NCBI GenBank assembly: GCA_965223005.1
Contig: CBDCVK010000010.1
Coordinates: 576,001-640,000, forward strand
Length of the DNA: 64,000 bases
Direction of reading: 5' to 3'
From: Terriglobia bacterium
GTDB lineage: Bacteria > Acidobacteriota > Terriglobia > JAJPHL01 > JAPKYU01
In this document: positions 17,056 to 32,721 of the stretch, piece by piece
Layout of the letters: the number at the start of each line of letters is the position of its first letter
How positions within the stretch are numbered: the first letter of the stretch is position 1
Notes under the pieces: model-generated
Database searches by the model: none
What the model was told of the DNA's origin: nothing
What the model saw: the letters and a program-made list of their open reading frames with translations, nothing else
Translations under genes and position numbers: made by a program

Positions 17056-19857
17056 TCAGAAAGTCCGGCCGACGCTGAATCGGAAGGTCCGGCTCTTCTC
17101 CCGCCAGAACACGCGCGGGGTGGTCAGCACCGCCGCGTTGAATGTGGCTTGGTTGGGGAACTGGCTGCGGTTAATCAGGACCGGCGGGGCCAGAAGGGTC
17201 TCCAGCCGGTTCGGGTTGTAGGCCCAGTACACGCGGAACGGAGCATTGACGACTGGCAGCAGCACTTGGACCTCCAATCCGGTCGAGCTGCGAATCTGCC
17301 GGTTGGTTCCTGGCAACAATTGTACCCTCGAGGGAAACTCCTGGCCGGGGAACTTAGCCATCAGGTCCGACAACCGCGAGGGGTTCATCGTGAGCTGGCT
17401 CTGCCGCCAGACGGTATTGAGCCCGGCGTCGAAGAACGCCGCCAGGACTACCGGCCCGAAAATTGGGACGCGGTATTCGAAGTTGCCGATCGTCTGCAAG
17501 TCCCCGCCTGGGAAGATGATGCGGTTCACCGGGTAGGTGACAGTTTGGGGCACCAGCTGCACCTCTCCATCGACCACCACCGGGACAAAGCGCGGCGTGC
17601 CGTCTTGATTGACCACACCGATCGTGGCCTCGTCGGTGACGTAGGCCATCGGGCTGACGGCGCGGATGAAGAAGCCGCGAATGTCGGTCTCCCCACCAAT
17701 GTAAAAGCGCTGAAACGGTGGCGCCACCTTGCCCGCGTAACCACTCTGGACTGAGGTCAGGAAGCGGAAACCCACGATATGCCCACTCTTGTTCACCGGA
17801 ATGAACTTGGTGAACTCGAAGGTGGGCCGGAAGAGACGGACGTTTCCGCCCAGACCGGCCAACTCTAGGCTACCGAAGACTTTGGTGCCGCGGGTGGGTG
17901 TGATCGGGTGATCCACCGTGTTGTACAGGTAGGTGGGGATGACCCTGCTGGTCGTGATCCCTTCCAGCGCGTTGGGGCCGCTGGCGCCCCGGAAATTCAG
18001 GAACTCGAAGAATTGCTTGGAAGCCGAACTGAAGGTCCTGATGTCGGAGCGGTCGTAGCCAAAAGTGAGGCCCACGCGGGCGAAACTGCGCCGCAGCGGA
18101 TAGGTGGCAAAGACGGTGAACCCCTGGCTGGACTGGCGGAAATTCTGGATGTTGTCGGTGCCCAACGCGTCAAACAGCGGAATCAGGTTGCGCCCGCTCA
18201 GGATGGAGGCCTCGCGCGCCTGATTGAAGCTGAAGCGGCGGGCAAAGATGGTGAAACCCATCTGTAGCGGGCGGTCAAACGCGTAGGGCTCGGTGAAGCC
18301 AAACAGGATGTTGCGCTGGCGGTTCCCGAGCTCCACCGCAAAGGTCAGCGTCTCCCCCAGCCCCATGAAATTGTTGGTGGAGTAGTTCATCCCAATAAAA
18401 CTGCCAGCGATGCCGCTGGTCCCACCCGTCAACCCGATGGTGTTTTTCCCGCGTTCCTTGACGTTCAAATTGATGTCCACCTGGCCGGTCCGGTTGTTAG
18501 GCCGGATGTCGGCCTCCTCGGGCTTGAGTGCCTCGAAGAAGCCGAGCTGGTTCAGGCGCAGGATGCTGACCTCCCACAGCCGGCTGTTGAACATGTCTCC
18601 TTCGTCCAACAGCAACTCACGCCGGATGACCTTGTCGCGGGTGGTGGTGTTGCCCGCGAACTCGATACGCCGGACAAAGAACTGCTTGTCCTCTTCGATG
18701 TCGAGGGTCATGTTGATGACCTTGTTCTGCCGATCCACGTCGGCGTCCGGCGTAGGAACCATATTGATGAAGCCGAATTCCCCGTACAGCTTGCGCAGGT
18801 CCTCCAGCCCATCGCGGATCTTGGAAACATCGAAGATGTCGCCTTCCCTCATCTTGAACAACGGGTACATAATGGCGTCCGGCTGGCGGAAGAATTTGAC
18901 CCCGGTAAAAGCCAACTTCCCCACCCGGTACTGCTCGCCCTCCTGGATGGGGATTGTCAGGTCCACCCGCTTGCTGGGCCGGTTGGGATAGAACAGGGGA
19001 ATGCGGAACCACCCGCCGCCGGTGTCGCGACTGTTGATGTCCGGGTCCAGCACCAGCGCGGTGAAGTAGCCGCTGTCCTGGTGTTTGCCGCGCACCCGTT
19101 CCAGGTCGGCGGCCAGCTTGTTGTGGTCAAAGGTCTTGCTAAAGATGTTTTCCAGAATGATGGAGTGGGGAATCCCGATCGGTTTCAGGTGTTTCATTGC
19201 CCGGCGCAGATCCCGGCTGCTAAAAACAGTATTGCCGGTGAATTCGATCTTGCCGACCTTGACCTTGGGCCCTTCCTCAACGACGAAGTCCAGCATCACC
19301 GAGTTCGGCGGCACCCGTTTGGGCTCGGCCCGAACCTTCGCGTACTGGCGGCCGCGCTCAGCCAGCAACTCTGCCAGCACCACCTCGGCCCGCCGCACCC
19401 GGTTGGGCTCGTACTGGCTTTGCGGCGTTAAACTCACCCTGCGCTCCCGGAACCGATCCAAGATCTCCGAGACAGTGACCGATTTGATGCCCTTGTAATC
19501 CATCGCGCGGATGGTGGGCTTCTCCTCCACGTGGAAGAGAACGATCTTCCCCTTGTCGCCGTCCTCCACCTCGAGACGGATGTTCTCAAAGAACCCTGCG
19601 TTCCACAGGGACATGAAATCGCGGCGCAGGGCATCCGGGTTGTAGGGATCGCCGGGTTTGCTGAAGATCCGGGAGCGCAGGGTGGCCGCGGGCACGCGCC
19701 GGTTCCCCAGAAACCGAATGTGGTCAATGAGTTCCTGCGACTCGGCTTGCTGGGCGACCGACGCTGCTGCGGAGGCACTGGCGGGCAGGGCCCCCAACCA
19801 GCACAGGAACAGCAGGAAAAGCAATCTGGGCGGTGCCGACAGCTTCAAACGGAACAT
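17056..19857 (-). CDS. bamA: Outer-membrane protein assembly factor BamA (ORF open to 19908)
   Basis: POTRA repeats ('GNTTTRDKVIRRE'), 'RFYIGGETDIRGF', C-terminal 'FRFSVGRTF'. Confidence 0.95.
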   Translation of the reverse strand: MFRLKLSAPPRLLFLLFLCWLGALPASASAAASVAQQAESQELIDHIRFLGNRRVPAATLRSRIFSKPGDPYNPDALRRDFMSLWNAGFFENIRLEVEDGDKGKIVLFHVEEKPTIRAMDYKGIKSVTVSEILDRFRERRVSLTPQSQYEPNRVRRAEVVLAELLAERGRQYAKVRAEPKRVPPNSVMLDFVVEEGPKVKVGKIEFTGNTVFSSRDLRRAMKHLKPIGIPHSIILENIFSKTFDHNKLAADLERVRGKHQDSGYFTALVLDPDINSRDTGGGWFRIPLFYPNRPSKRVDLTIPIQEGEQYRVGKLAFTGVKFFRQPDAIMYPLFKMREGDIFDVSKIRDGLEDLRKLYGEFGFINMVPTPDADVDRQNKVINMTLDIEEDKQFFVRRIEFAGNTTTRDKVIRRELLLDEGDMFNSRLWEVSILRLNQLGFFEALKPEEADIRPNNRTGQVDINLNVKERGKNTIGLTGGTSGIAGSFIGMNYSTNNFMGLGETLTFAVELGNRQRNILFGFTEPYAFDRPLQMGFTIFARRFSFNQAREASILSGRNLIPLFDALGTDNIQNFRQSSQGFTVFATYPLRRSFARVGLTFGYDRSDIRTFSSASKQFFEFLNFRGASGPNALEGITTSRVIPTYLYNTVDHPITPTRGTKVFGSLELAGLGGNVRLFRPTFEFTKFIPVNKSGHIVGFRFLTSVQSGYAGKVAPPFQRFYIGGETDIRGFFIRAVSPMAYVTDEATIGVVNQDGTPRFVPVVVDGEVQLVPQTVTYPVNRIIFPGGDLQTIGNFEYRVPIFGPVVLAAFFDAGLNTVWRQSQLTMNPSRLSDLMAKFPGQEFPSRVQLLPGTNRQIRSSTGLEVQVLLPVVNAPFRVYWAYNPNRLETLLAPPVLINRSQFPNQATFNAAVLTTPRVFWREKSRTFRFSVGRTF

Positions 19858-20153
19858 CTCTCCCGACTCAGAGTTTTCATACGAGACGCCCTGCGTCGGG
19901 CGACCCATTCATTTTACAACGGCCGCAGGGCTTCCAGGCAAAGACTCTGTAAGCTTGCCGGTCCGAGGGGATAAACCCATTCCGACGCTAAAGGTAGCAG
20001 GAAAGTCACATGAAAGTTGGACGGGTTGCCGAGCGTCGGGAGACCGTCAGACGCAGCTTCGAGCGGTCGATCGGAGTCCCTGCGCTAGCAGGCCGCCAGC
20101 CCTTCGAAGCGAGCACGAGGAGCCAGCACGGGGAGTAGTCGGGCACGGCCGCC

Positions 20154-21584
20154 TCAGGCTCGCCGCCATTCTCCGACGCGCACTAGTTTCATCAGGTTCG
20201 TGCCGCCGGGCGCGGTGAAAGGACTGCCGGCCACGGCCGCCACAATATCGCCCCGGGCGACTAGCTTCTTTTGCAGCAAGATCTTTTCCGCCGAAGCGAT
20301 GGTGGTATCGGTGTCGGAAACCAGCGGCATGAGCCGCGGCTGCACGCCCCAGTAGAGAGCCACCCGTTGGCAGGTCCGCTGCTCCGGGCAGAAGGCGTAG
20401 ATGGGGGGCACAGGACGGTACTTGGAGATCAGCCGAGCTGTGGAACCACTGCGGGTGAAGACCACGACCGCCTTGACGTCCAGTTCTTCTGTCACGTGGG
20501 CCACGCTCTCGCTGACCGCCTCCGCGACATTGTGCTCGTGCATCGCCCGCCGCAGCCGGGGATGGATCTCGCTCATGTGCCTCTCGGCCTCTTCGGCAAT
20601 GCGCGCCATCATCGCCACGGCTTCGCGCGGGTATTTCCCGCTGGCAGTCTCGCCGGAAAGCATCACCGCGTCGGTGCCATCGAAAATGGCATTGGCGACG
20701 TCGCTGGCCTCGGCCCGGGTGGGGCGGGGATTCTCGGTCATCGACTCCAGCATCTGGGTAGCGGTAACTACCGGAACCTTGGCGGCGCGGGCCCTCTCGA
20801 TGATGCGCTTCTGCGCCATCGGGACCTTCTCCGGCGACATCTCTACGCCCAGGTCCCCCCGGGCAACCATGACCGCGTCGCTGATCTTCAGGATGTTTTC
20901 CAGGTCCTCGATGGCCTCCGGCTTTTCCAGCTTAGCGACGACAGGAGTCTGGCTCTTCGAGCGCGCGATCACCTCCTTGACGGCGGCCACGTCCCGGGCG
21001 GTCCTCACGAAAGAGACCGCCACATAGTCCACTCCTTGCTCCAGGCCGAATTTCAGGTGCCGTTCGTCCTCTTTGGTCATCGCCGGGATGCGCAGCTTGG
21101 CGCCGGGCAAATTGACGCCTTTGTGCTCACCCAACAGCCCGCCGTTCTGGACCCTACAGACCACGTCGTTGCCGTGGCAGCTCTTCACCTGCAGCTCGAT
21201 CAACCCGTCGGCCAGCAGGATCCGGTCACCGGGGCGCACGTCCCGGCCCAGCCGGGAATAGCTGACGGAAAAGCGGCGGGAGTTGCCGACAATTTCCTTG
21301 GGTGTCAACTGCAGCGTCTGGCCGGCCCGCAGCGTTACCGGACGGCCCTGCTCGAGACGACCGGTGCGAATCTTCGGTCCGGGCAGATCTTGCAGGATGG
21401 CCAGGTGGCGCTTCTCGGCCGCGGCCACTTCCCGCACCAGCCGGATGAGGCGTGCGTGCTGCTGGTGGGTCCCGTGAGAAAAGTTAAGCCGCACCACGTC
21501 TGCCCCGGCCCGCACCAGCGCTCGCACGCCTTCCCGGGTGTTCGTGGCCGGCCCTACTGTAGCTATGATCTTGGCTTTTCGCAT
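20154..21584 (-). CDS. pyk: Pyruvate kinase
   Basis: 'KIIATVGPA', 'RLNFSHG', 'MVARGDLGVE', 'MLSGETA'. Confidence 0.97.
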   Translation of the reverse strand: MRKAKIIATVGPATNTREGVRALVRAGADVVRLNFSHGTHQQHARLIRLVREVAAAEKRHLAILQDLPGPKIRTGRLEQGRPVTLRAGQTLQLTPKEIVGNSRRFSVSYSRLGRDVRPGDRILLADGLIELQVKSCHGNDVVCRVQNGGLLGEHKGVNLPGAKLRIPAMTKEDERHLKFGLEQGVDYVAVSFVRTARDVAAVKEVIARSKSQTPVVAKLEKPEAIEDLENILKISDAVMVARGDLGVEMSPEKVPMAQKRIIERARAAKVPVVTATQMLESMTENPRPTRAEASDVANAIFDGTDAVMLSGETASGKYPREAVAMMARIAEEAERHMSEIHPRLRRAMHEHNVAEAVSESVAHVTEELDVKAVVVFTRSGSTARLISKYRPVPPIYAFCPEQRTCQRVALYWGVQPRLMPLVSDTDTTIASAEKILLQKKLVARGDIVAAVAGSPFTAPGGTNLMKLVRVGEWRRA

Positions 21585-25050: not shown

Positions 25051-28014
25051 CTATGGCCCGTCGCTGGCTTGGTTGCCGGCCAGCGCAGAGAAGCGGCGGC
25101 GGGTCTCCTCGGACCAGCCGGGAATCACTTCGGCCACCGTTCCCCCCGCGTTGAGCAGAACCGACAGAGGCACGGAGAGTTCGTCGGAAGCATACAGCTG
25201 TTCGACGGCCGGAATCCCACCGATATAGATCGGATAGCGGACGCCGGTGTCGGCCACAAACCCGCGGACGTTGGCGTCGGCTTCGGTGTCCACATTGAGG
25301 CCGATCAAGTCGACCCCTCCGGCTGAAAGCTTGGGGCGGAGTTTTTCCAGCTCCGGCATCTCCAGGATGCAGGGCGCGCACCAAGTGGCCCAGACATTGA
25401 TCAGCGCCCGGCGGCCCGGGCGAAGCTGTTTGTAGAGGGAAGTTGCCTCTCCGTCCAATGTCTTCAGCGCCAGATCGGGCATGGGGCGGCCGACGCTGAT
25501 CTTCAGCTTGCGCGCAAAGGTTTCGGCGCGAGTGAGCGGATCGGGCAGTTGGGCGCGGCCGAGGGCAAGCGTTTCGGCGCGACCGGCGCCGGCACGCAGC
25601 AGCAGCGTCGAGCCGGCCCGGGCGTCGGCCTGGAAACGCTCGACTTCCCCATTGGGCCAGGTCACCTCGATCCATTCGGCGCGCTCCTCCGATCCCAGCC
25701 CGAACAGCAGGCGCGGGTCGTGCTGCGCAATGAAGCCTGAGCCGCCGCTTTTGACTTTGGTCACCGTGCCCGCCGAAGTGCGCAGTCGCACAACCGCGCC
25801 ATAGGCGTCGCGCCCCAGCGCGGGGCTGCCTTCCAGCACGATCCGCAGGAAATGGTTGGCCTGCCCGATATTGTTGCGAAACAGCAGGTGTGCTTCCCCC
25901 TGGATGGTGGTTAGAAACACGTCCAGATCGCCGTCGTTATCGAAATCGGCAAACACCGCCGCGCGGCCATCGCTAATCGAGTCAATTCCAGAGATTCCGG
26001 AGACGTCCAAATACTTGCCCGTGCCCAGGTTCAGGGAGAGCAGATCGCGTTCGTACCCGCTAAATGAGAATCCCTGTTGGGCGATCAGGCGCATTTGGTC
26101 GGCACGGAGCGCGCCCTGCCCCTGTTTCGGATTCTTGTCTTGCGCCACGACCTGACGCCAGAACTGACTTCAGGTGTCCTTCATGGAACTGCCGGAGAGG
26201 AACCCATTGGGGGTCAGCAGATCCTCCCAGCCATCGTTATCGAAGTCGAGGAACCCACCCCCCCAGGCCCATCCGCCGGAGAAGCCAGCGCTCTCGGCGG
26301 TCACGTCCCGGTAGTAGCCGTTGCCGGCGTTCCGATACAGGTTGTTGCCCGAGGCCAGCTTCCGGTACACGTTGTTCCCGGCGCCAGCGCCGGGAAACAG
26401 CCGCGACACGATGCGGTTGCCTGCGGTCGAGGACATGTTGGTGACGTGCAGATCGAGCTCTCCGTCGTTGTCGTAATCGCCGAAGGAGACGCCCATGCCG
26501 TTGCCGGGGTCCACGACGCCGCGCTCCCGTGCCTCGTTCACGAACTTGTCCCCGTGGTGGATGAACAGGGCGTTTTCACCAAAGTCGTTGGCCACATAGA
26601 GGTCCAGGCGCCCGTCTCTGTTGACGTCGGCGAAGGCGGCCGCGTAACTCCAGCGCCGCTCGTCCACGCCCCAGCGGGCCGCCTCCTCGCGAAAGGTGCC
26701 ATCGCCCTGATTGATGTACAGCAGGTTCGGCGTGCCGTTGGTGGCCCGGTACCAGGAATCTGGCGTTACCCGGCCGAAGTGGTTGTAGCAGGCAACGTAG
26801 ATGTCGGCATATCCGTCGCCGTTCACGTCTCCGGCCACGGCGCTGAACCCAATCGCCTGCCGGCCTACCCCGGCCTTCCAGGAAACATCGCGAAGTTCCA
26901 GTTTCCCGTCCGGCACCTGCCGGTTCTCCAAAAGCATCTGGTGCCCAACCGAGGAGAGGAACACGTCGGAATCGCCGTCATTGTCGTAATCGAGAACCAG
27001 GGGGGCCACCCCGCGGTCGAGCAGCTCCACGCCCGCTTCCAGGGAGGCGTCACGGAACCGGCCTTGTGCGTCGTTCAAATAAAGATAGTTGCGATCCGGC
27101 GAGGTCACGAACAGATCGATCCAGCCGTCAAGATTGAAATCCCCGGCCGCCGCCCCGTACCAGGCGAAGCTGGGTCCTCCCCGCTCCGCAAAAGCAGGCA
27201 GGCTGGCGGCCACGCCGGCCGGCACGGAGACTTCCGAGAACAGATCGGTAGTGGCCAGCATGGAATCCAGGCTCAGCAACTCGAACGATTCAAACTGCCA
27301 GCGCCCGCTGGCCGCCCGACGGACCGCGATCGCCGCCGCTCCCCGCGTCCATTCGCGCCGCCCGTTAGTGTCTCGGCCTACCAGGTAAAACTTCAGGCGC
27401 GCCGTTCCTTCGGAACCCACCTTGGCGGTGGGAACATTGGCCTCCATCTCAACATCAGCCGAATCAGCGAATTGGGCTCCCGCCACCTTGAAGCGCGCGT
27501 CTTCGATCGCCTCGAAGTGATCCAGGAAGGCGAATAACGCACCCAAGAACTCCTCCCCGGTCATGCTGTGTTTCACCTCGCGGGAGCGGTCGTTGCGTTG
27601 CGAGGAGTGGCGGGGACCCTGAGCATCCGCCGTCCATCCATGCCTGGCGACCCATCTCACTTCTTTCTGGACCGGCAGCGGAGTGGACCAGAAGGGGGTA
27701 GCCGACAACTGGGCGGGAACGTACTCGACCACTTGGTGCTGGTCCCGATCCCGCACGGCGAGTGACAGATCCAACATGTCGTTGGCCAACGATTCGGACA
27801 ACTCCTCTACCACTTCCAGCCGCGCCGCATCCGCCGTTGCATCCGTCGTTGGATCCGTGGTTCCGGCGCGCTTGGGAGCCGAGGCCGCGGGCGTTTCGCC
27901 CTGCGCCGAATCGGCCGGCGCCGCCGGGGGCTGCGCCGCTGGCTTCTGCGCAAACAAGATCGCTGCCAGGAGCAGGCAAATCAGGAAGATTGTTGATTGT
28001 CCCAGCTTGTTCAT
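25051..28014 (-). CDS. Predicted exported selenoprotein: FG-GAP/CRTAC1-like propeller, Sec615, ASPIC/UnbV, TlpA-like thioredoxin (987 aa with UGA read-through)
   Basis: ORFs 26170-28059 and 25051-26148 are in frame, separated only by TGA 26170-26172 (KDT*SQFWRQVV); repeated D.N/D.DG..D motifs on both sides; WCAPC; SECIS-like hairpin. Confidence 0.75.
26142..26172 (-). promoter_or_regulatory. Bacterial SECIS-like element
   Basis: UGA + 11 nt + GCGUCA-GGUCG-UGGCGC stem-loop. Confidence 0.7.
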
Positions 28015-28208
28015 GCTGATTTCGTAATAATACTGCGCGCCGTCCAAGGCTGCTGCCAAGCCAGGCTTGAACGCCTCGGCATTGCTCCCACCAGAAGCTG
28101 CCAGCCCGAAGCCTGACGCTTCAGGCTCTTTTCTCAGTTTACTCTGGTTTCAGCACTTCCCGCGCGGCATTTCACGAGATGAAAACAAGAGTGACAAAAG
28201 ACTGCGGG

Positions 28209-29798
28209 CTAGGGAGATTTTCTTGCGGTCAATTCCTCCGGCTGTTGCTGGTCGGTTGCGTCGGGCGCGGTCACGGGGCTCTGGGCGGCGGGCGGCTGGG
28301 GTTTCCAACGCAGGATGGGCCGGCGCGCGGCCGCCACTTCGTCCAGGCGGCCTACCCGGGTGGCGTGCGGCGCGTTGCGCACCGTCTCGGGTTCTTCTTC
28401 CACCTCACGGGCGATCGCGCGCATCGCCTCAATGAAGCAATCCAGCTCCTGCTTGCTCTCGGTTTCCGTCGGCTCGATCATCAGCGCGCCCTGGACGATC
28501 AGCGGGAAGCTGACGGTGTAGGGGTGAAAGCCGTAATCAATCAGGCGCTTGGCGATGTCGCCGGTGCGCACGCCGTGGCGCGCCTGGAGCCGGTCGCTGA
28601 AGACGCACTCGTGGAGCGACGCCTGGCGGTACGTCAGCTCGTAGAGGTCTTCCAGGTGCCTGCGGATGTAGTTGGCGTTGAGCACGGCGTCCTCCGCTAC
28701 CGCCCTAAGGCCGTTGCCGCCGTGCGCCAGAACGTAGGCCAGGGCACGCACCAGCACGCCAAAGTTGCCCACGAAGGCACGCACCCGACCGATGGAGTTT
28801 GGCCGCTGGTGGTTCAGGCGCAGCCGGCCATGCGGCCCTTCTTCCAGGACCGGCACCGGCAAGTACGGCTCCAGGTGTTTCTTCACGCAGACGGGGCCGG
28901 CCCCGGGACCGCCGCCGCCGTGCGGGGTGGAAAAGGTCTTGTGAAGGTTCAGGTGCATCACGTCCACCCCGAAGTCGCCAGGACGGGTCTTGCCCAACAG
29001 AGCATTCATGTTGGCGCCGTCCATGTAGAGCTGGGCGCCCCGGGCATGCAGGAGATCCGCAATGGAGGCGATCTGCTGTTCAAAAATCCCCAGCGTGTTG
29101 GGGTTGGTGATCATCAGCGCCGCGACCTGTTCGGTGACAGCTTTCTGGAGCGCTTCCAGATCCACACGGCCGTCACCGTTGGAGCGGACGTTCTCGACCG
29201 TGTAACCAGCTATCGATGCGGTCGCCGGATTGGTTCCGTGAGCCGAATCCGGGATCAGGATTTTCTTTCGCGGGTTCCCCTGCGCTTCAAGATAGGCGCG
29301 TACCAGCAGGATGCCGGTCAGCTCGCCCTGGGCGCCGGCAGCCGGCTGCAACGTCACCGTATCCATGCCGGTGATGTCCAGCAGGTAAGTGGAGAGCTGC
29401 CGCAAGATCTTCAAACAGCCCTGGGCCAGATCATCGGGCTGATAGGGGTGCTGGTCAGCAAGCCCTTCCAGACGCGCCACCACTTCATTGACCTTCGGGT
29501 TGTACTTCATGGTGCAGGAACCCAGCGGGTAGAATCCCGTTTCCACCCCGTAGTTCCAGCTTGAGAGGCGAGTGAAGTGGCGCACCAACTCCACTTCGCT
29601 GACCTCGGGGAAGTCGGCAATTTCGGCCCGCACATTGGCCTGGCCCAGCGTCGCGACCGGATCCACCTCCGGCACCTCCAGCGCTGGCAACTGCCAGGCG
29701 TGCTTGCCCGGCGAGGAGCGCTCAAAGATCAGCCCTTCATTTTGGCTGATGTGGCGCCGACGGAGATGGTGGCTGACGTGGGAGGCGGCTTTCTTCAT
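28209..29798 (-). CDS. gcvPB: Glycine dehydrogenase subunit 2
   Basis: '[12 protein letters not shown]', '[17 protein letters not shown]', 'IEPTETE'. Confidence 0.96.
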
Positions 29799-31096
29799 GC
29801 GAGCACCTCGACCAGTTGGTCAAGCTGCTCCCTGGTGTGGACCTCGGTCACGCACAGCAACAGCGCCTCGCCCAGTTCCGGGTAGAACGGCCTCAGGTCC
29901 AGGCCGCCCAGAATCTTCTTCTCACGCAGTGCCTGAAGCTTCCTGTCGGCTTCGCCTGGCCTCAGGGTCACTACGAACTCGTTAAAGAAAGGCCCGGAGA
30001 ACTGTAGCTTCAGGCCGGAGGCAGCGCAGTGCGCCTTGGCCAGGTTGTGGCGGGCCAGCTCTCGCAAGCCTTCCTTGCCGTAGACGGTCATAAAGATGGT
30101 AGCCGCCAGAGCGCACAGAGCCTGGTTGGTGCAGATGTTGGACGTGGCCTTCTCGCGGCGAATATGCTGCTCTCGGGTGGCCAGCGTCAGGCAGAAGCCG
30201 GGGCGGCCCTCGACGTCGGTGGTCTGCCCGACGAGGCGCCCGGGGAGGCTGCGCACGTACTTCTCCCGCGTGGCGATCACCCCGGCGTAGGGACCGCCGT
30301 AACTGGCTGGAATACCCAGGCCCTGAATCTCCATGGCGACGATGTCGGCAGCGGCCGGGGGCCGCAGCACGCCCAGCGAGACCGGTTCTGCGATTGCCAC
30401 CACGAGCAGCGCCCCGGCAGCGTGTGCGATTTCCGCCGCCCGCTCCACGTCCTCCACTACGCCGAAGAAGTTCGGGGACTGTACCACGACCGCCGCCAGA
30501 TCCTCCGGCACCGAGAACGGTGCGAGCGTGCCGTCCCGGCGGTCGTACTCCAGCTCCCGCACCTCAATCCCTTGATGGCGTATGTAGGTGGCCAGAACCT
30601 GCCGGTATTCCGGGTGGACAGAGCGCGCCACCAGCACCCTCGAGCGCCGGGTTATCCGCGCCGCCATCAGTACCGCCTCGGCCAGCGCGCTAGAGCCGTC
30701 GTACATCGAGGCGTTGGCCACCTCGGTCCCGGTCAACTGGCAGATCATGGTCTGGAACTCAAAGATGGATTGCAGCGTGCCTTGGGAGATCTCGGCCTGG
30801 TAGGGCGTGTAGGCGGTGTAAAACTCGCTGCGCGAGATCAGCGCATCCACCGCCACCGGCCGAAAATGCGGGTACACTCCCGCGCCGAGGAACGATACAT
30901 AACCACTCGCATTCTCACGTGCCCACTCGCGGAAATACCGCACGAGTTCGAATTCAGAGATGCCATCGGGAATGTTCAGCCCCCTCTGCAAACGGACCTC
31001 GGCGGGAATCGAGGCAAATAGCTCCTCCACGTGCTTCAGTCCCAGCGACTCCAGCATCTGCTGCCGTTCCGACTCCGACTTGGGCAGATAGCGCAT
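29795..31096 (-). CDS. gcvPA: Glycine dehydrogenase subunit 1
   Basis: '[13 protein letters not shown]', 'NASMYDG', '[17 protein letters not shown]'. Confidence 0.96.
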
Positions 31097-31176
31097 GTTC
31101 TTGAGTGAAGAGTGCCGATGAAGAGTGAACGGGCTTTGATTCCTTCACTCTTCCTTCACTCTTCAGGCACCGAGCT

Positions 31177-31572
31177 TCACTGTTCTTCCTCCTCCGCGAT
31201 ATAGCCTTCGTACTGCTCGGCACTGAGCAGATCTGCCAGCTCAGTGGGGTTCGTCAGGCGGACCTTGACCAGCCAGGCCTCCCCATGCGGATCCTGGTTG
31301 AGCAGCTCAGGGCTGCCGGTCAGCTTTGCATTGGCGTCCAGGACCTCGCAACTGACCGGGGCAAAAATTTCCGAGACCGCCTTGACCGACTCTACCGTGC
31401 CCAGGGGCTGCCCGGCCTGGAAGCGGTCGCCGACGCGAGGCAACTCCAGGTATACGATATCGCCCAACTGCTTCTGGGCGTGGTCCGTGATGCCGACAGT
31501 GCCGGTCTCACCTTCCACTCGAATCCACTCGTGCTCGCGCGTGTAGCCGTAATTGGGGGGATAGACCGCCAT
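31177..31572 (-). CDS. gcvH: Glycine cleavage H protein
   Basis: 'HEW', 'GITDHAQ', lipoyl site 'VESVKAVS'. Confidence 0.96.
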   Translation of the reverse strand: MAVYPPNYGYTREHEWIRVEGETGTVGITDHAQKQLGDIVYLELPRVGDRFQAGQPLGTVESVKAVSEIFAPVSCEVLDANAKLTGSPELLNQDPHGEAWLVKVRLTNPTELADLLSAEQYEGYIAEEEEQ

Positions 31573-32721
31573 TTATTTGCTGCCTTCCGGCTTCGCCTCG
31601 CGTTTGTTTGACCCCGGCTTCGCCGGCCGCTTCCTCTTGTAAAAGGGCGTCTCGACAATGCGCGCCGCGACGCGCTGGTTGCGGACCCCAATCCGGATTT
31701 CCCCTCCCACCTGCGCCAGCTCCGACGGCAGGTAGGCCAGCCCGATATTCGTTCGCAGGAAAGGGGCGGGCGAGCCGCTGGTGACGTAGCCGACCTCGGT
31801 ATTCTCCAAATACACCGGATAGCCGTCTCGGGCGATCCCGCGTTCGGTCATTTGGAAGCCGACCAGGCGGCGGCGCACCCCGTGCTGCTTCTGGCGCATC
31901 AGGGTCTCCCGGCCCAGGAACTCGCCCTTGTCCAACTTGCAGATCCAGCCGAGGTCGGCTTCCAGCGGCGTGTGGGTTTCGTCAATTTCATGCCCGTAAA
32001 GAGCCATCTTGGCTTCCAGGCGTAGCGTGTTGCGGGCCCCAAGTCCGCAGGGGACCAGGCCGTGCTCGCGCCCCGCTTCCAGCAGTCTGTACCAGAGGCG
32101 CTCGGATTCCGACGGCGCGAAGTAGAGTTCGAAGCCGTCTTCACCAGTGTAGCCGGTTCGCGCCAGTAGGCATTCTGCCCCGTCCACGGTCCCGCGCGCA
32201 AACCAGTAGTAACCGAGAGCCCCCAGTTCGGTGTCGGTCAGCCTCTGCAAGATGGACGTAGCTTGCGGGCCCTGCAGGGCCAGCTGGGAATACTGGGCGC
32301 CGGTGTTGCACACTTCGGCGTGGAAGCGGTTCTGCTCGCAAATCCAGTTGAAGTCGCGCTCCTGGTTGGCTGCGTTGACCACCAGCAGGAAGTGGTCATC
32401 GGCCAGCTTGTGCACCAGCAGGTCGTCCGCCAGCGTGCCCTGCGGGTACATCAGGCCGCTGTACTGCGCCTGCCCGATGGCCAGGCGGGCCGCATCGTTC
32501 GAAGTGACGTGTTGCACCAGGCGCAGGGCGTCGCGGCCTCGCACTTCGATCTGGCCCATGTGGCTGACGTCGAACAGACCGGCGCGCGTGCGGACCGCCA
32601 AGTGTTCTTCCACGATGCCGCTGTACTGGAGCGGCATCTCCCAACCTCCGAAGGGCACCATCCGGGCGCCCATCCGCTTGTGCACGGCATGCAGCGCAGT
32701 GCGATGCGGGGGACCGCTCAA
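31573..32721 (-). CDS. gcvT: Glycine cleavage aminomethyltransferase T
   Basis: 'GLFDVSHMG', 'RTGYTGEDGFE', 'GLGARNTLRLEA'. Confidence 0.96.
   Translation of the reverse strand: MSGPPHRTALHAVHKRMGARMVPFGGWEMPLQYSGIVEEHLAVRTRAGLFDVSHMGQIEVRGRDALRLVQHVTSNDAARLAIGQAQYSGLMYPQGTLADDLLVHKLADDHFLLVVNAANQERDFNWICEQNRFHAEVCNTGAQYSQLALQGPQATSILQRLTDTELGALGYYWFARGTVDGAECLLARTGYTGEDGFELYFAPSESERLWYRLLEAGREHGLVPCGLGARNTLRLEAKMALYGHEIDETHTPLEADLGWICKLDKGEFLGRETLMRQKQHGVRRRLVGFQMTERGIARDGYPVYLENTEVGYVTSGSPAPFLRTNIGLAYLPSELAQVGGEIRIGVRNQRVAARIVETPFYKRKRPAKPGSNKREAKPEGSK

Follow-up and report, generated by a model that had tools for sequence, protein, structure and literature searches.

Comparative evidence for a selenocysteine-containing CRTAC1-type propeller protein with a fused thioredoxin-like domain in a Terriglobia bacterium

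This study analyzed a 64,000-nucleotide stretch of DNA from a Terriglobia bacterium of the Acidobacteriota (GenBank assembly GCA_965223005.1, contig CBDCVK010000010.1, positions 576,001 to 640,000), hereafter called the window, and in particular a gene on its minus strand, at 28014..25051, that is interrupted by one in-frame TGA. Comparison with homologous sequences indicates that the UGA at 26172-26170 is very probably a selenocysteine (Sec) codon and that the two flanking halves form one recoded gene, a reading to which we assign a probability of about 0.93. Taken jointly with Sec decoding and the redox relay discussed below, the best explanation of the gene product is that it is very likely an exported CRTAC1-family propeller fused to a TlpA/ResA-like thioredoxin (Trx) domain.

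Reading frame and reliability of the TGA

In the 26050-26300 region, the minus strand reads AAG GAC ACC TGA AGT CAG TTC TGG CGT CAG GTC GTG GCG C. An earlier note, made from the letters of this DNA, had reported the peptide KDT*SQFWRQVV with a single TGA between two in-frame open reading frames (ORFs), and both the sequence and the 987-residue translation agree with that report. The whole recoded coding sequence (25051..28014, minus strand) comprises 987 codons followed by TAG. When TGA was translated as Sec (U), U615 (26170..26172, minus strand) was the sole codon that departed from translation table 11. A mechanical ORF listing divides the same stretch into 26170..28059 and 25051..26148, and a GTG codon lies 7 codons past the TGA. 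TGA is also an ordinary stop in the window, where it ends 19 of the 37 mechanical ORFs of at least 300 amino acids and is the commonest stop of the long ORFs.

The stretch 28014..25051 is one gene, and its TGA is not an assembly error. Two genomes of the same genus encode the protein with 94% and 90% identity across residues 1-987, each with one TGA. Logan contigs from runs X1 and X3, which belong to two studies, span 25913-26256 with no differences. A contig from an RNA library of a 95%-similar strain (X18 record 12) spans the junction at 25647-26367; such libraries can contain DNA, and this coverage makes no statement on translation.

As origins of the TGA, an error in sequencing or assembly and a recent pseudogenizing mutation were also considered, and both were rejected as having a negligible probability. 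No point in their favor was found, and they conflict with the identical contigs of the two studies and with the presence of the TGA in the two same-genus genomes and in three phyla.

Conservation of the TGA column among homologues

Homologous loci were searched for in 401 genomes of the own phylum, with residues 540-720 as the query, and in 301 genomes of the Planctomycetota. The own-phylum search matched 125 of the 401 genomes and gave 150 listed matches and 48 further ones; 80 of those listed carried one TGA, 70 were stop-free, and none carried TAA or TAG. In the Planctomycetota, 69 of the 301 genomes were matched, and the 150 matches listed consisted of 130 with one TGA and 20 stop-free sequences, with no other stop. 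At least 62 of the 401 own-phylum genomes have a TGA form. Some of the Planctomycetota genomes (G635, G664, and G725) have 8-9 TGA-form genes among the matches listed.

The TGA occupied the identical column in 49 of 49 fetched own-phylum loci and in loci of named metagenome-assembled genomes and metagenomes. It comes directly after the last D-x-D-G blade with its motif N-G-[FY]-x-[ST]-G, and [ST]-x-[FYL]-W or an equivalent follows at once. The column was TGA in 76 distinct homologous sequences, which according to their record titles come from Acidobacteriota (Pyrinomonadaceae and others), Planctomycetota, and Verrucomicrobiia. In the protein database, approximately 75 of the best 120 matches were N-terminal fragments of 550-680 residues (e.g., P0043), all ending in (K/A)DT at the TGA column, and several of them bear the NCBI label 'VCBS repeat-containing protein'. 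The anticipated splitting of the gene by standard annotation has thus occurred in the public records.

These fragments raise the alternative that the TGA is a true stop, with an N-terminal propeller gene and a C-terminal ASPIC-thioredoxin gene conserved side by side and in frame. We consider this very improbable. Gene callers and public records do give the halves separately, and the GTG past the TGA offers the second half a possible start; nevertheless, among the 300 matches listed, all 210 that have an in-frame stop have TGA and none has TAA or TAG, the frame is gapless, and in the 76 distinct sequences the peptide motif extends across the stop.

A second alternative, even less probable, is that the UGA is read through without Sec, either because a near-cognate tRNA inserts Trp, Cys, or Arg or because the code is reassigned, with the downstream hairpin being a mere stimulator. 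The column does tolerate many residues in homologues without TGA: the 59 non-Sec rows have S in 13, R in 12, A in 7, E in 6, C in 5, N in 4, D in 3, L in 3, Q in 2, and Y, V, I, and T in 1 each. Many of these residues are typical of a helix N-cap. However, none of the 59 rows has Trp, and reassignment is excluded because TGA is the commonest stop of the long ORFs (19/37) and each homologue has exactly one TGA. On a tree of 135 junction regions, the Sec state changed, by gain or loss, at least 12 times.

Several further observations concern the copies of this gene. Tandem arrays of TGA-form paralogues were seen: L135 and L136 are neighbors on a single metagenome contig, and in certain genomes of the Planctomycetota one contig has 4-6 of the matches listed (G664:C253, G725:C204, and G632:C19). 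The divergent subtypes L265, L266, L271, and L268 also have the TGA at this structural column and differ in the peptide downstream of it (SEDT-U-VLFWN, DD[FL]-U-LP[FY]I, and GDS-U-SVFWR).

Selenocysteine machinery

The source genome contains the complete set of Sec genes that the earlier note had called for. Matches of 551, 341, and 357 bits identified selA, selB, and selD, respectively, and tRNA-Sec was found with 78.5 bits by Rfam and called as tRNA-SeC with the anticodon TCA by ARAGORN. The selD gene itself (G000:C10:916629-917552, locus L010; TIGR00476, 357 bits) has one in-frame TGA, and SelD of this genome is probably a selenoprotein as well.

The machinery was also compared with the distribution of the TGA form. 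Among the matches listed, 62 own-phylum genomes have a TGA form, and 58 of them have selA, compared with a background of 301 of 401 genomes; the remaining 4 have no selA match and a selB match above the cut-off. All 62 TGA-bearing genomes of the own phylum therefore have selA or selB. When G086, which carries an unpublished flag, is left out of the 62, the counts become 61 and 57. In the Planctomycetota and Verrucomicrobiia, selB was present in the 3 of 3 genomes tested. The genomes without selA that have homologues (G135, G205, G245, and G255) have stop-free forms. This distribution speaks against a true stop, and the confinement of the TGA forms found to genomes with SelA or SelB also speaks against read-through by another tRNA.

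SECIS-like hairpin downstream of the UGA

A hairpin resembling a selenocysteine insertion sequence (SECIS) is located at 26142..26158 on the minus strand. It reads GCGUCA-GGUCG-UGGCGC, with a 6-bp stem and the 5-nt loop GGUCG, and its start at 26158 is exactly 11 nt after the UGA, the position that the earlier note had given. The hairpin overlaps the codons of W-R-Q-V-V-A. When the surrounding 23 nt are folded, it is the structure of minimum free energy (MFE; -8.7 kcal/mol, z -2.29, equalled by 5 of 200 shuffles), and it also appears in the MFE fold of the 48 nt starting at the UGA (-10.8 kcal/mol), where three extra pairs form under a bulge.

The hairpin sequence was compared among 70 TGA forms, which gave an ungapped 51-nt alignment with the 11-nt spacing invariant in that set. 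In the stem columns 15-20/26-31, 89.3% of the cells were standard pairs, and the covariation was 0.249 compared with 0.103 after shuffling, a value that 0 of 500 shuffles reached; slid registers of the same alignment gave no covariation near 0.249. The fourth pair (18-28) joins the wobble base of an Arg codon to the first base of the next Ala, Thr, or Ser codon, and in the 70 forms it was CG in 26, UA in 18, GU in 7, AU in 6, GC in 4, UG in 2, and unpaired in 7. As a control, 20 stop-free homologues with the same FWRQVV[AS] peptide were 60.8% paired, with a covariation of 0.061 versus 0.062 (320 of 500 shuffles reached it), and their fourth pair was unpaired in 13 of 20. Because the covariation is missing in controls that share the peptide, the pairing is not a by-product of the peptide. 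The covariation that the earlier note had proposed looking for is thus present in the TGA forms and confined to them, which argues against a true stop.

Most of the unpaired cells came from the divergent subtypes L162 and L265-L272, which have other hairpins or registers. Their apparently different hairpins suggest that several SECIS variants exist inside one protein family.

The published model of the bacterial SECIS (bSECIS; PMC13188914, section 5 and Fig. 2 legend) comprises a loop of 3-9 nt on a stem of 4-16 bp, a G in the first two loop positions, a UGA-to-loop distance of 16-37 nt, and an MFE of -7.5 kcal/mol or lower. The window hairpin lies within all four limits, with a 5-nt loop on 6 bp, G at loop position 2, a distance of 17 nt, and -8.7 kcal/mol. 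Loop position 2 was G in 70 of the 70 TGA forms. An Rfam scan of 25900-26400 (E <= 10) returned three chance matches only and no SECIS family.

The Escherichia coli fdhF gene (NC_000913) has a proven SECIS with which the hairpin can be compared. The fdhF sequence bears out the statement in the earlier note that this element begins 11 nt after the UGA and has a CAGGUC apex: its in-frame TGA is followed after 11 nt by GGTTGCAGGTCTGCACC, and in both genes a 17-nt hairpin presents an apical GGUC closed by an A-U pair. From the UGA to the first G of GGUC, the distance is 17 nt in the window and 18 nt in fdhF. The two elements differ in that the window hairpin has a perfect 6-bp stem and a 5-nt loop without the bulged U, and the proteins are unrelated; the Sec of FdhH ligates Mo (PMC13188914). 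The combination of SECIS spacing, G at loop position 2, and an fdhF-like GGUC is a further argument against non-Sec read-through.

Protein architecture and predicted fold

The domain composition given in the earlier note, namely FG-GAP repeats, UnbV/ASPIC, and a TlpA-like domain with WCAPC, agreed with Pfam, an AlphaFold2 (AF2) model, and Foldseek. The AF2 model was built from 59 aligned sequences and had a mean predicted local distance difference test score (pLDDT) of 90.8 and a predicted template modeling score (pTM) of 0.90. All features below are encoded on the minus strand.

The N-terminus resembles a signal peptide (residues 1-23, 27946..28014, MNKLGQSTIFLICLLLAAILFAQ, read by eye), and the model places a helix at 9-20 followed by a linker of low pLDDT. 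A conserved alpha/beta domain follows at residues ~55-262 (27229..27852), in which a long helix (55-88) precedes a beta-sheet and the pLDDT is mostly >90. This domain has invariant motifs in alignment A1 (RLEVxEDLSESLAN...IEDARFKV) and no Pfam or NCBIfam match. Residues ~270-614 (26173..27207) form the FG-GAP/VCBS propeller blades before the Sec (Pfam FG-GAP_3, E 1.3e-41; FG-GAP, E 1.7e-20). FG-GAP_3 matched six stretches with 141.5 bits (cut-off 26.9), and FG-GAP-type Ca-binding motifs occur on both sides of the TGA, with DFDNDGD after it, so the repeats continue across the codon as previously described.

The Sec opens a two-helix insertion (26074..26172) whose helices, according to a DSSP assignment of the AF2 model, cover residues 615-627 and 635-647. 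The proposal that Sec615 sits in a propeller loop therefore needs refinement: U615 does lie between propeller blades in the model, where helix 615-627 begins with this residue, and is not part of a plain loop. One more FG-GAP-type D-x-D-x-D-G blade follows the insertion and precedes the UnbV_ASPIC domain at residues 737-797 (25624..25806; Pfam PF07593, E 4.2e-14, 52.6 bits, cut-off 23.4). In a PDB sequence search, the UnbV_ASPIC region aligned to CRTAC1 residues 374-491.

The C-terminal TlpA/ResA-like domain with the thioredoxin fold spans residues 841-942 (25189..25494; Pfam Redoxin, E 2.8e-16, 60.1 bits, cut-off 26.6; AhpC-TSA, E 2.7e-14). Its active-site motif CAPC, with C879 and C882 (25369..25380), stands at the start of helix 880-898 in the model.

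The top Foldseek match of the model was murine CRTAC1 (9etn_A; E 8.4e-29, 612 aligned columns, template modeling score 0.74 normalized to CRTAC1), and the sequence match to 9etn had an E value of 5.2e-28. The window protein shares the FG-GAP propeller and UnbV_ASPIC with the CRTAC1/ASPIC-UnbV family and differs from CRTAC1 by the addition of the N-terminal alpha/beta domain, the Sec-started helical insertion, and the C-terminal TlpA-like domain; the sequence alignment with 9etn omits residues 536-681. Because U615 lies inside a modeled single propeller fold, a stop at this position would cut one fold (pTM 0.90, one CRTAC1 chain aligned), which is again difficult to reconcile with two separate genes.

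For the C-terminal domain, the next Foldseek matches were ResA and TlpA, and the PDB sequence matches were ResA 4nmu and TlpA 1jfu. The likeness to TlpA, ResA, and DsbE consists of the Redoxin fold, the WCxPC motif at a helix N-terminus, and the extracytoplasmic setting, whereas here the domain is part of a protein of ~105 kDa and its presumed client is the Sec of the same chain. The NCBIfam scores were far under the cut-offs (72.3 vs 170 for ResA and 61 vs 230 for TlpA); the domain is therefore TlpA-like and not an orthologue.

Some variation was observed among the homologues. Pfam Redoxin or AhpC-TSA was found in 7 of 8 tested forms of ~950-1030 residues, the eighth having CVPC and scoring below the threshold, and forms of ~1200-1300 residues have extra tetratricopeptide repeats at the C-terminal end. 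By eye, the homologues L051, L052, L212, and L208 start with lipoprotein-type signals (e.g., ...LALAACGGG and ...LLLVGCSG); localization may differ between members with a plain signal-like start and those with a lipobox-like one.

Selenocysteine and partner cysteines

In the mature protein, cysteine is conserved only at C879 and C882 of WCAPC; C13 lies in the signal peptide and C409 is unconserved. A CxxC lies 249-285 residues beyond the Sec in 50 of the 51 distinct TGA forms whose C-terminus is complete. The remaining form, L162, has no Trx domain and reads U-T-C, and U-x-C also occurs in L267, L269, L270, and L272. The Cys forms L099 and L107, which are without a Trx domain, have C-x-x-x-C. 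In the stop-free relatives L028, L029, and L032, which are ~1300 residues long, the Trx-like (AhpC-TSA-like) domain is kept, the CxxC has become CSQS, AAES, and SSAS, and the Sec column is Ala or Ser; these proteins look like a redox-dead version of the same architecture.

The link between Sec and partner Cys was examined on the tree of 135 junction regions, with the Sec column masked. A partner Cys was present in 58 of 58 Sec forms of known status compared with 8 of 44 non-Sec forms. A Sec/dithiol redox function of Sec615 and the CxxC, which this co-occurrence supports, is slightly more probable than not, and the link is suggestive and not proven.

SelB and tRNA-Sec very probably decode the UGA as selenocysteine under the direction of the hairpin 11 nt downstream. 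If the redox function is real, the proposed mechanism would run as follows. Sec615, at a helix N-terminus, which is the usual position of a reactive thiolate or selenolate, would be the redox nucleophile; its substrate, outside the cytoplasm, may be a peroxide, a disulfide or sulfoxide, or a metal(loid) species. C879/C882 would resolve and recycle in cis the selenenic acid or selenenylsulfide so formed, and the TlpA-like domain may then be re-reduced by a membrane reductant of the CcdA/DsbD type, as other TlpA-like proteins are. When selenium is scarce, translation would stop at the UGA and leave a truncated propeller of 614 residues.

Weighing of the evidence

Several observations weigh against Sec decoding or against the relay. 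The Sec assignment rests on sequence comparison. The folding energy around the UGA is unremarkable (z -0.49 for 66 nt and z -0.80 for 48 nt), and the 66-nt fold starting 3 nt before the UGA favors another pairing. An unexceptional folding energy would also suit a true stop. However, the weak z-score is no argument against the hairpin, since the SECIS of fdhF, a proven one, reaches only z -0.67 when tested in this way. The covariation derives mostly from one pair because pairs 17-29 and 20-26 hardly vary; they are nearly invariant, and this part of the stem is set by the amino-acid sequence. Cys is rare at the Sec column, with 5 of 59 non-Sec rows (P0002, L099, L107, and two more), unlike in most selenoprotein families, for which Cys homologues are plentiful; distant rows of alignment A4 may sit one residue off at this column. 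The earlier note had expected a conserved TGA or a Cys at this position; the TGA is conserved, and Cys occurs in a few rows. The neighborhood of the gene in the window is uninformative on function. With respect to the relay, CxxC is retained in five non-Sec proteins, and the kinship-corrected link between Sec and partner Cys was not significant: in 6 independent pairs, ~4.2 changed in the same way and 0 in the opposite way, with a median p of 0.125. The relay put forward in the earlier note is thus supported by the raw co-occurrence and not by the corrected test.

The last two points, together with the non-Cys column in most homologues, also bear on a third alternative, a genuine selenoprotein in which Sec615 is not recycled by the CxxC. 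Sec615 would then be a metal(loid) ligand or form a structural selenenylsulfide, and the TlpA-like domain would serve other periplasmic clients. We regard this alternative as rather unlikely. The five non-Sec proteins that keep the CxxC indicate that the Trx domain can work without Sec, and TlpA-type domains reduce separate clients, as in PDB entries 4txv and 4txo, whose titles refer to mixed disulfides formed with CoxB and with ScoI. On the other side stand the partner Cys in all 58 Sec forms and few of the non-Sec forms, the vicinal Cys in forms without the Trx domain (U-x-C in five and C-x-x-x-C in two), and the joint loss of CxxC and Sec in L028, L029, and L032. The helix N-cap position in the model, typical of reactive thiolates and selenolates, also speaks for the Sec/dithiol function over a ligand or structural role.

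With regard to Sec decoding itself, several of the refuting findings named in the earlier note did not arise: the Sec machinery is present, the column contains no TAA or TAG among the matches listed, and the TGA is no sequencing error.

Gene neighborhood

In the window, the gene lies downstream of the glycine-cleavage cluster gcvT-gcvPA-gcvPB (28209-32721, minus strand), from which a 195-nt gap separates it, and upstream of genes for an HxlR-type regulator, a DinB-family protein, and a glyoxalase. Other genes on the minus strand encode an Omp85/BamA-like protein with five POTRA repeats (17056-19908) and pyruvate kinase (20154-21584). Eight other loci showed no conserved neighbor, except for a DUF6851/VCPO-like gene in three related loci. 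In these three Pyrinomonadaceae loci (L044:5485-7026, L048:5372-6961, and L049:5709-7214, all on the plus strand), the next gene downstream encodes a DUF6851 + VCPO_2nd + PAP2 protein similar to a vanadium haloperoxidase or acid phosphatase; the window, L047, and L050 do not have this gene.

Relation to known selenoproteins and significance

A 2026 review (PMC13188914) presents in its Table 1 a self-described most comprehensive inventory of 119 prokaryotic selenoprotein families, and this table has no FG-GAP, ASPIC, UnbV, CRTAC1, or PF13517/PF07593/PF01839 entry. NCBIfam has no selenoprotein model for the Sec region; its matches were confined to residues 825-973, except for one sub-threshold match to XAC2610_fam at residues 394-416 (E 0.0016, 18.9 bits, cut-off 35). 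The main texts of deep-Sep, BSepDB, and GOS do not mention FG-GAP, ASPIC, UnbV, or CRTAC1. The deep-Sep and BSepDB supplements, of which the latter is possibly incomplete, have no mention of FG-GAP, VCBS, ASPIC, CRTAC1, UnbV, or a propeller. Among the matches listed in a literature search, no relevant work tied selenoproteins to ASPIC, FG-GAP, CRTAC1/UnbV, or VCBS.

One precedent was found. In a 2016 PLoS One study of Planctomycetes from Porphyra (PMC4807772), supplement Table S9 lists four ASPIC/FG-GAP selenoprotein candidates. These share the domain description with the window protein, each is annotated as two genes, a SECIS is marked 'yes' for three of them, and Gly, a non-Cys residue, stands at the Sec column of the closest non-Sec match. 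They differ in that they form a bare list without covariation, distribution, a thioredoxin link, or structure, and the main text does not mention ASPIC or FG-GAP. The likeness is one of description, from which a shared Sec column is inferred. The view in the earlier note that the protein lies outside the classic selenoprotein families thus agrees with the 119-family catalogue and NCBIfam and has to be qualified by these four candidates.

Known Sec-containing families with the Trx fold share with the window protein the TlpA/redoxin fold and selenium redox chemistry outside the cytoplasm, but their Sec replaces a Cys of the CxxC, whereas here the CxxC is all-Cys and the Sec lies ~264 residues upstream in another fold. 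The NCBIfam model WAxxUGC_long matched the Trx domain only, with 38.6 bits against a cut-off of 300.

These findings suggest that the protein very probably represents a new selenoprotein family with classical decoding, widespread in Acidobacteriota and Planctomycetota, systematically misannotated, and recorded so far as four candidates in a supplement. Cys/Sec pairs and thioredoxin-like motifs are the features on which the discovery of bacterial selenoproteins leans, and this family slips past both filters because its Sec is in a propeller protein and its relatives mostly have Ser, Ala, Asn, or similar residues at the column. In public records, these genes appear as a 'VCBS repeat-containing protein' plus a second ORF downstream, and the downstream ORF of the window's gene starts inside the propeller. 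Because the genes are split in annotation, selenoproteome sizes, estimates of selenium demand, and protein-family models are biased for these soil and marine phyla.

A broader proposal, to which we give even odds, is that these proteins constitute a large family of extracytoplasmic selenoenzymes in which a CRTAC1-type propeller would offer a helix-N-cap Sec to a fused CxxC domain and so recycle itself. In Acidobacteriota and Planctomycetota, few selenoproteins would be as abundant as these, a single genome having up to 8-9 paralogues, and Sec would have been repeatedly gained and lost at a mostly non-Cys site. If true, such gain and loss would depart from the usual Cys-to-Sec route. The finding would also provide a first clue to the function of the CRTAC1/ASPIC-UnbV family, since no activity is known for its bacterial members: a reactive Sec that requires a dithiol partner would point to redox chemistry at a defined site.

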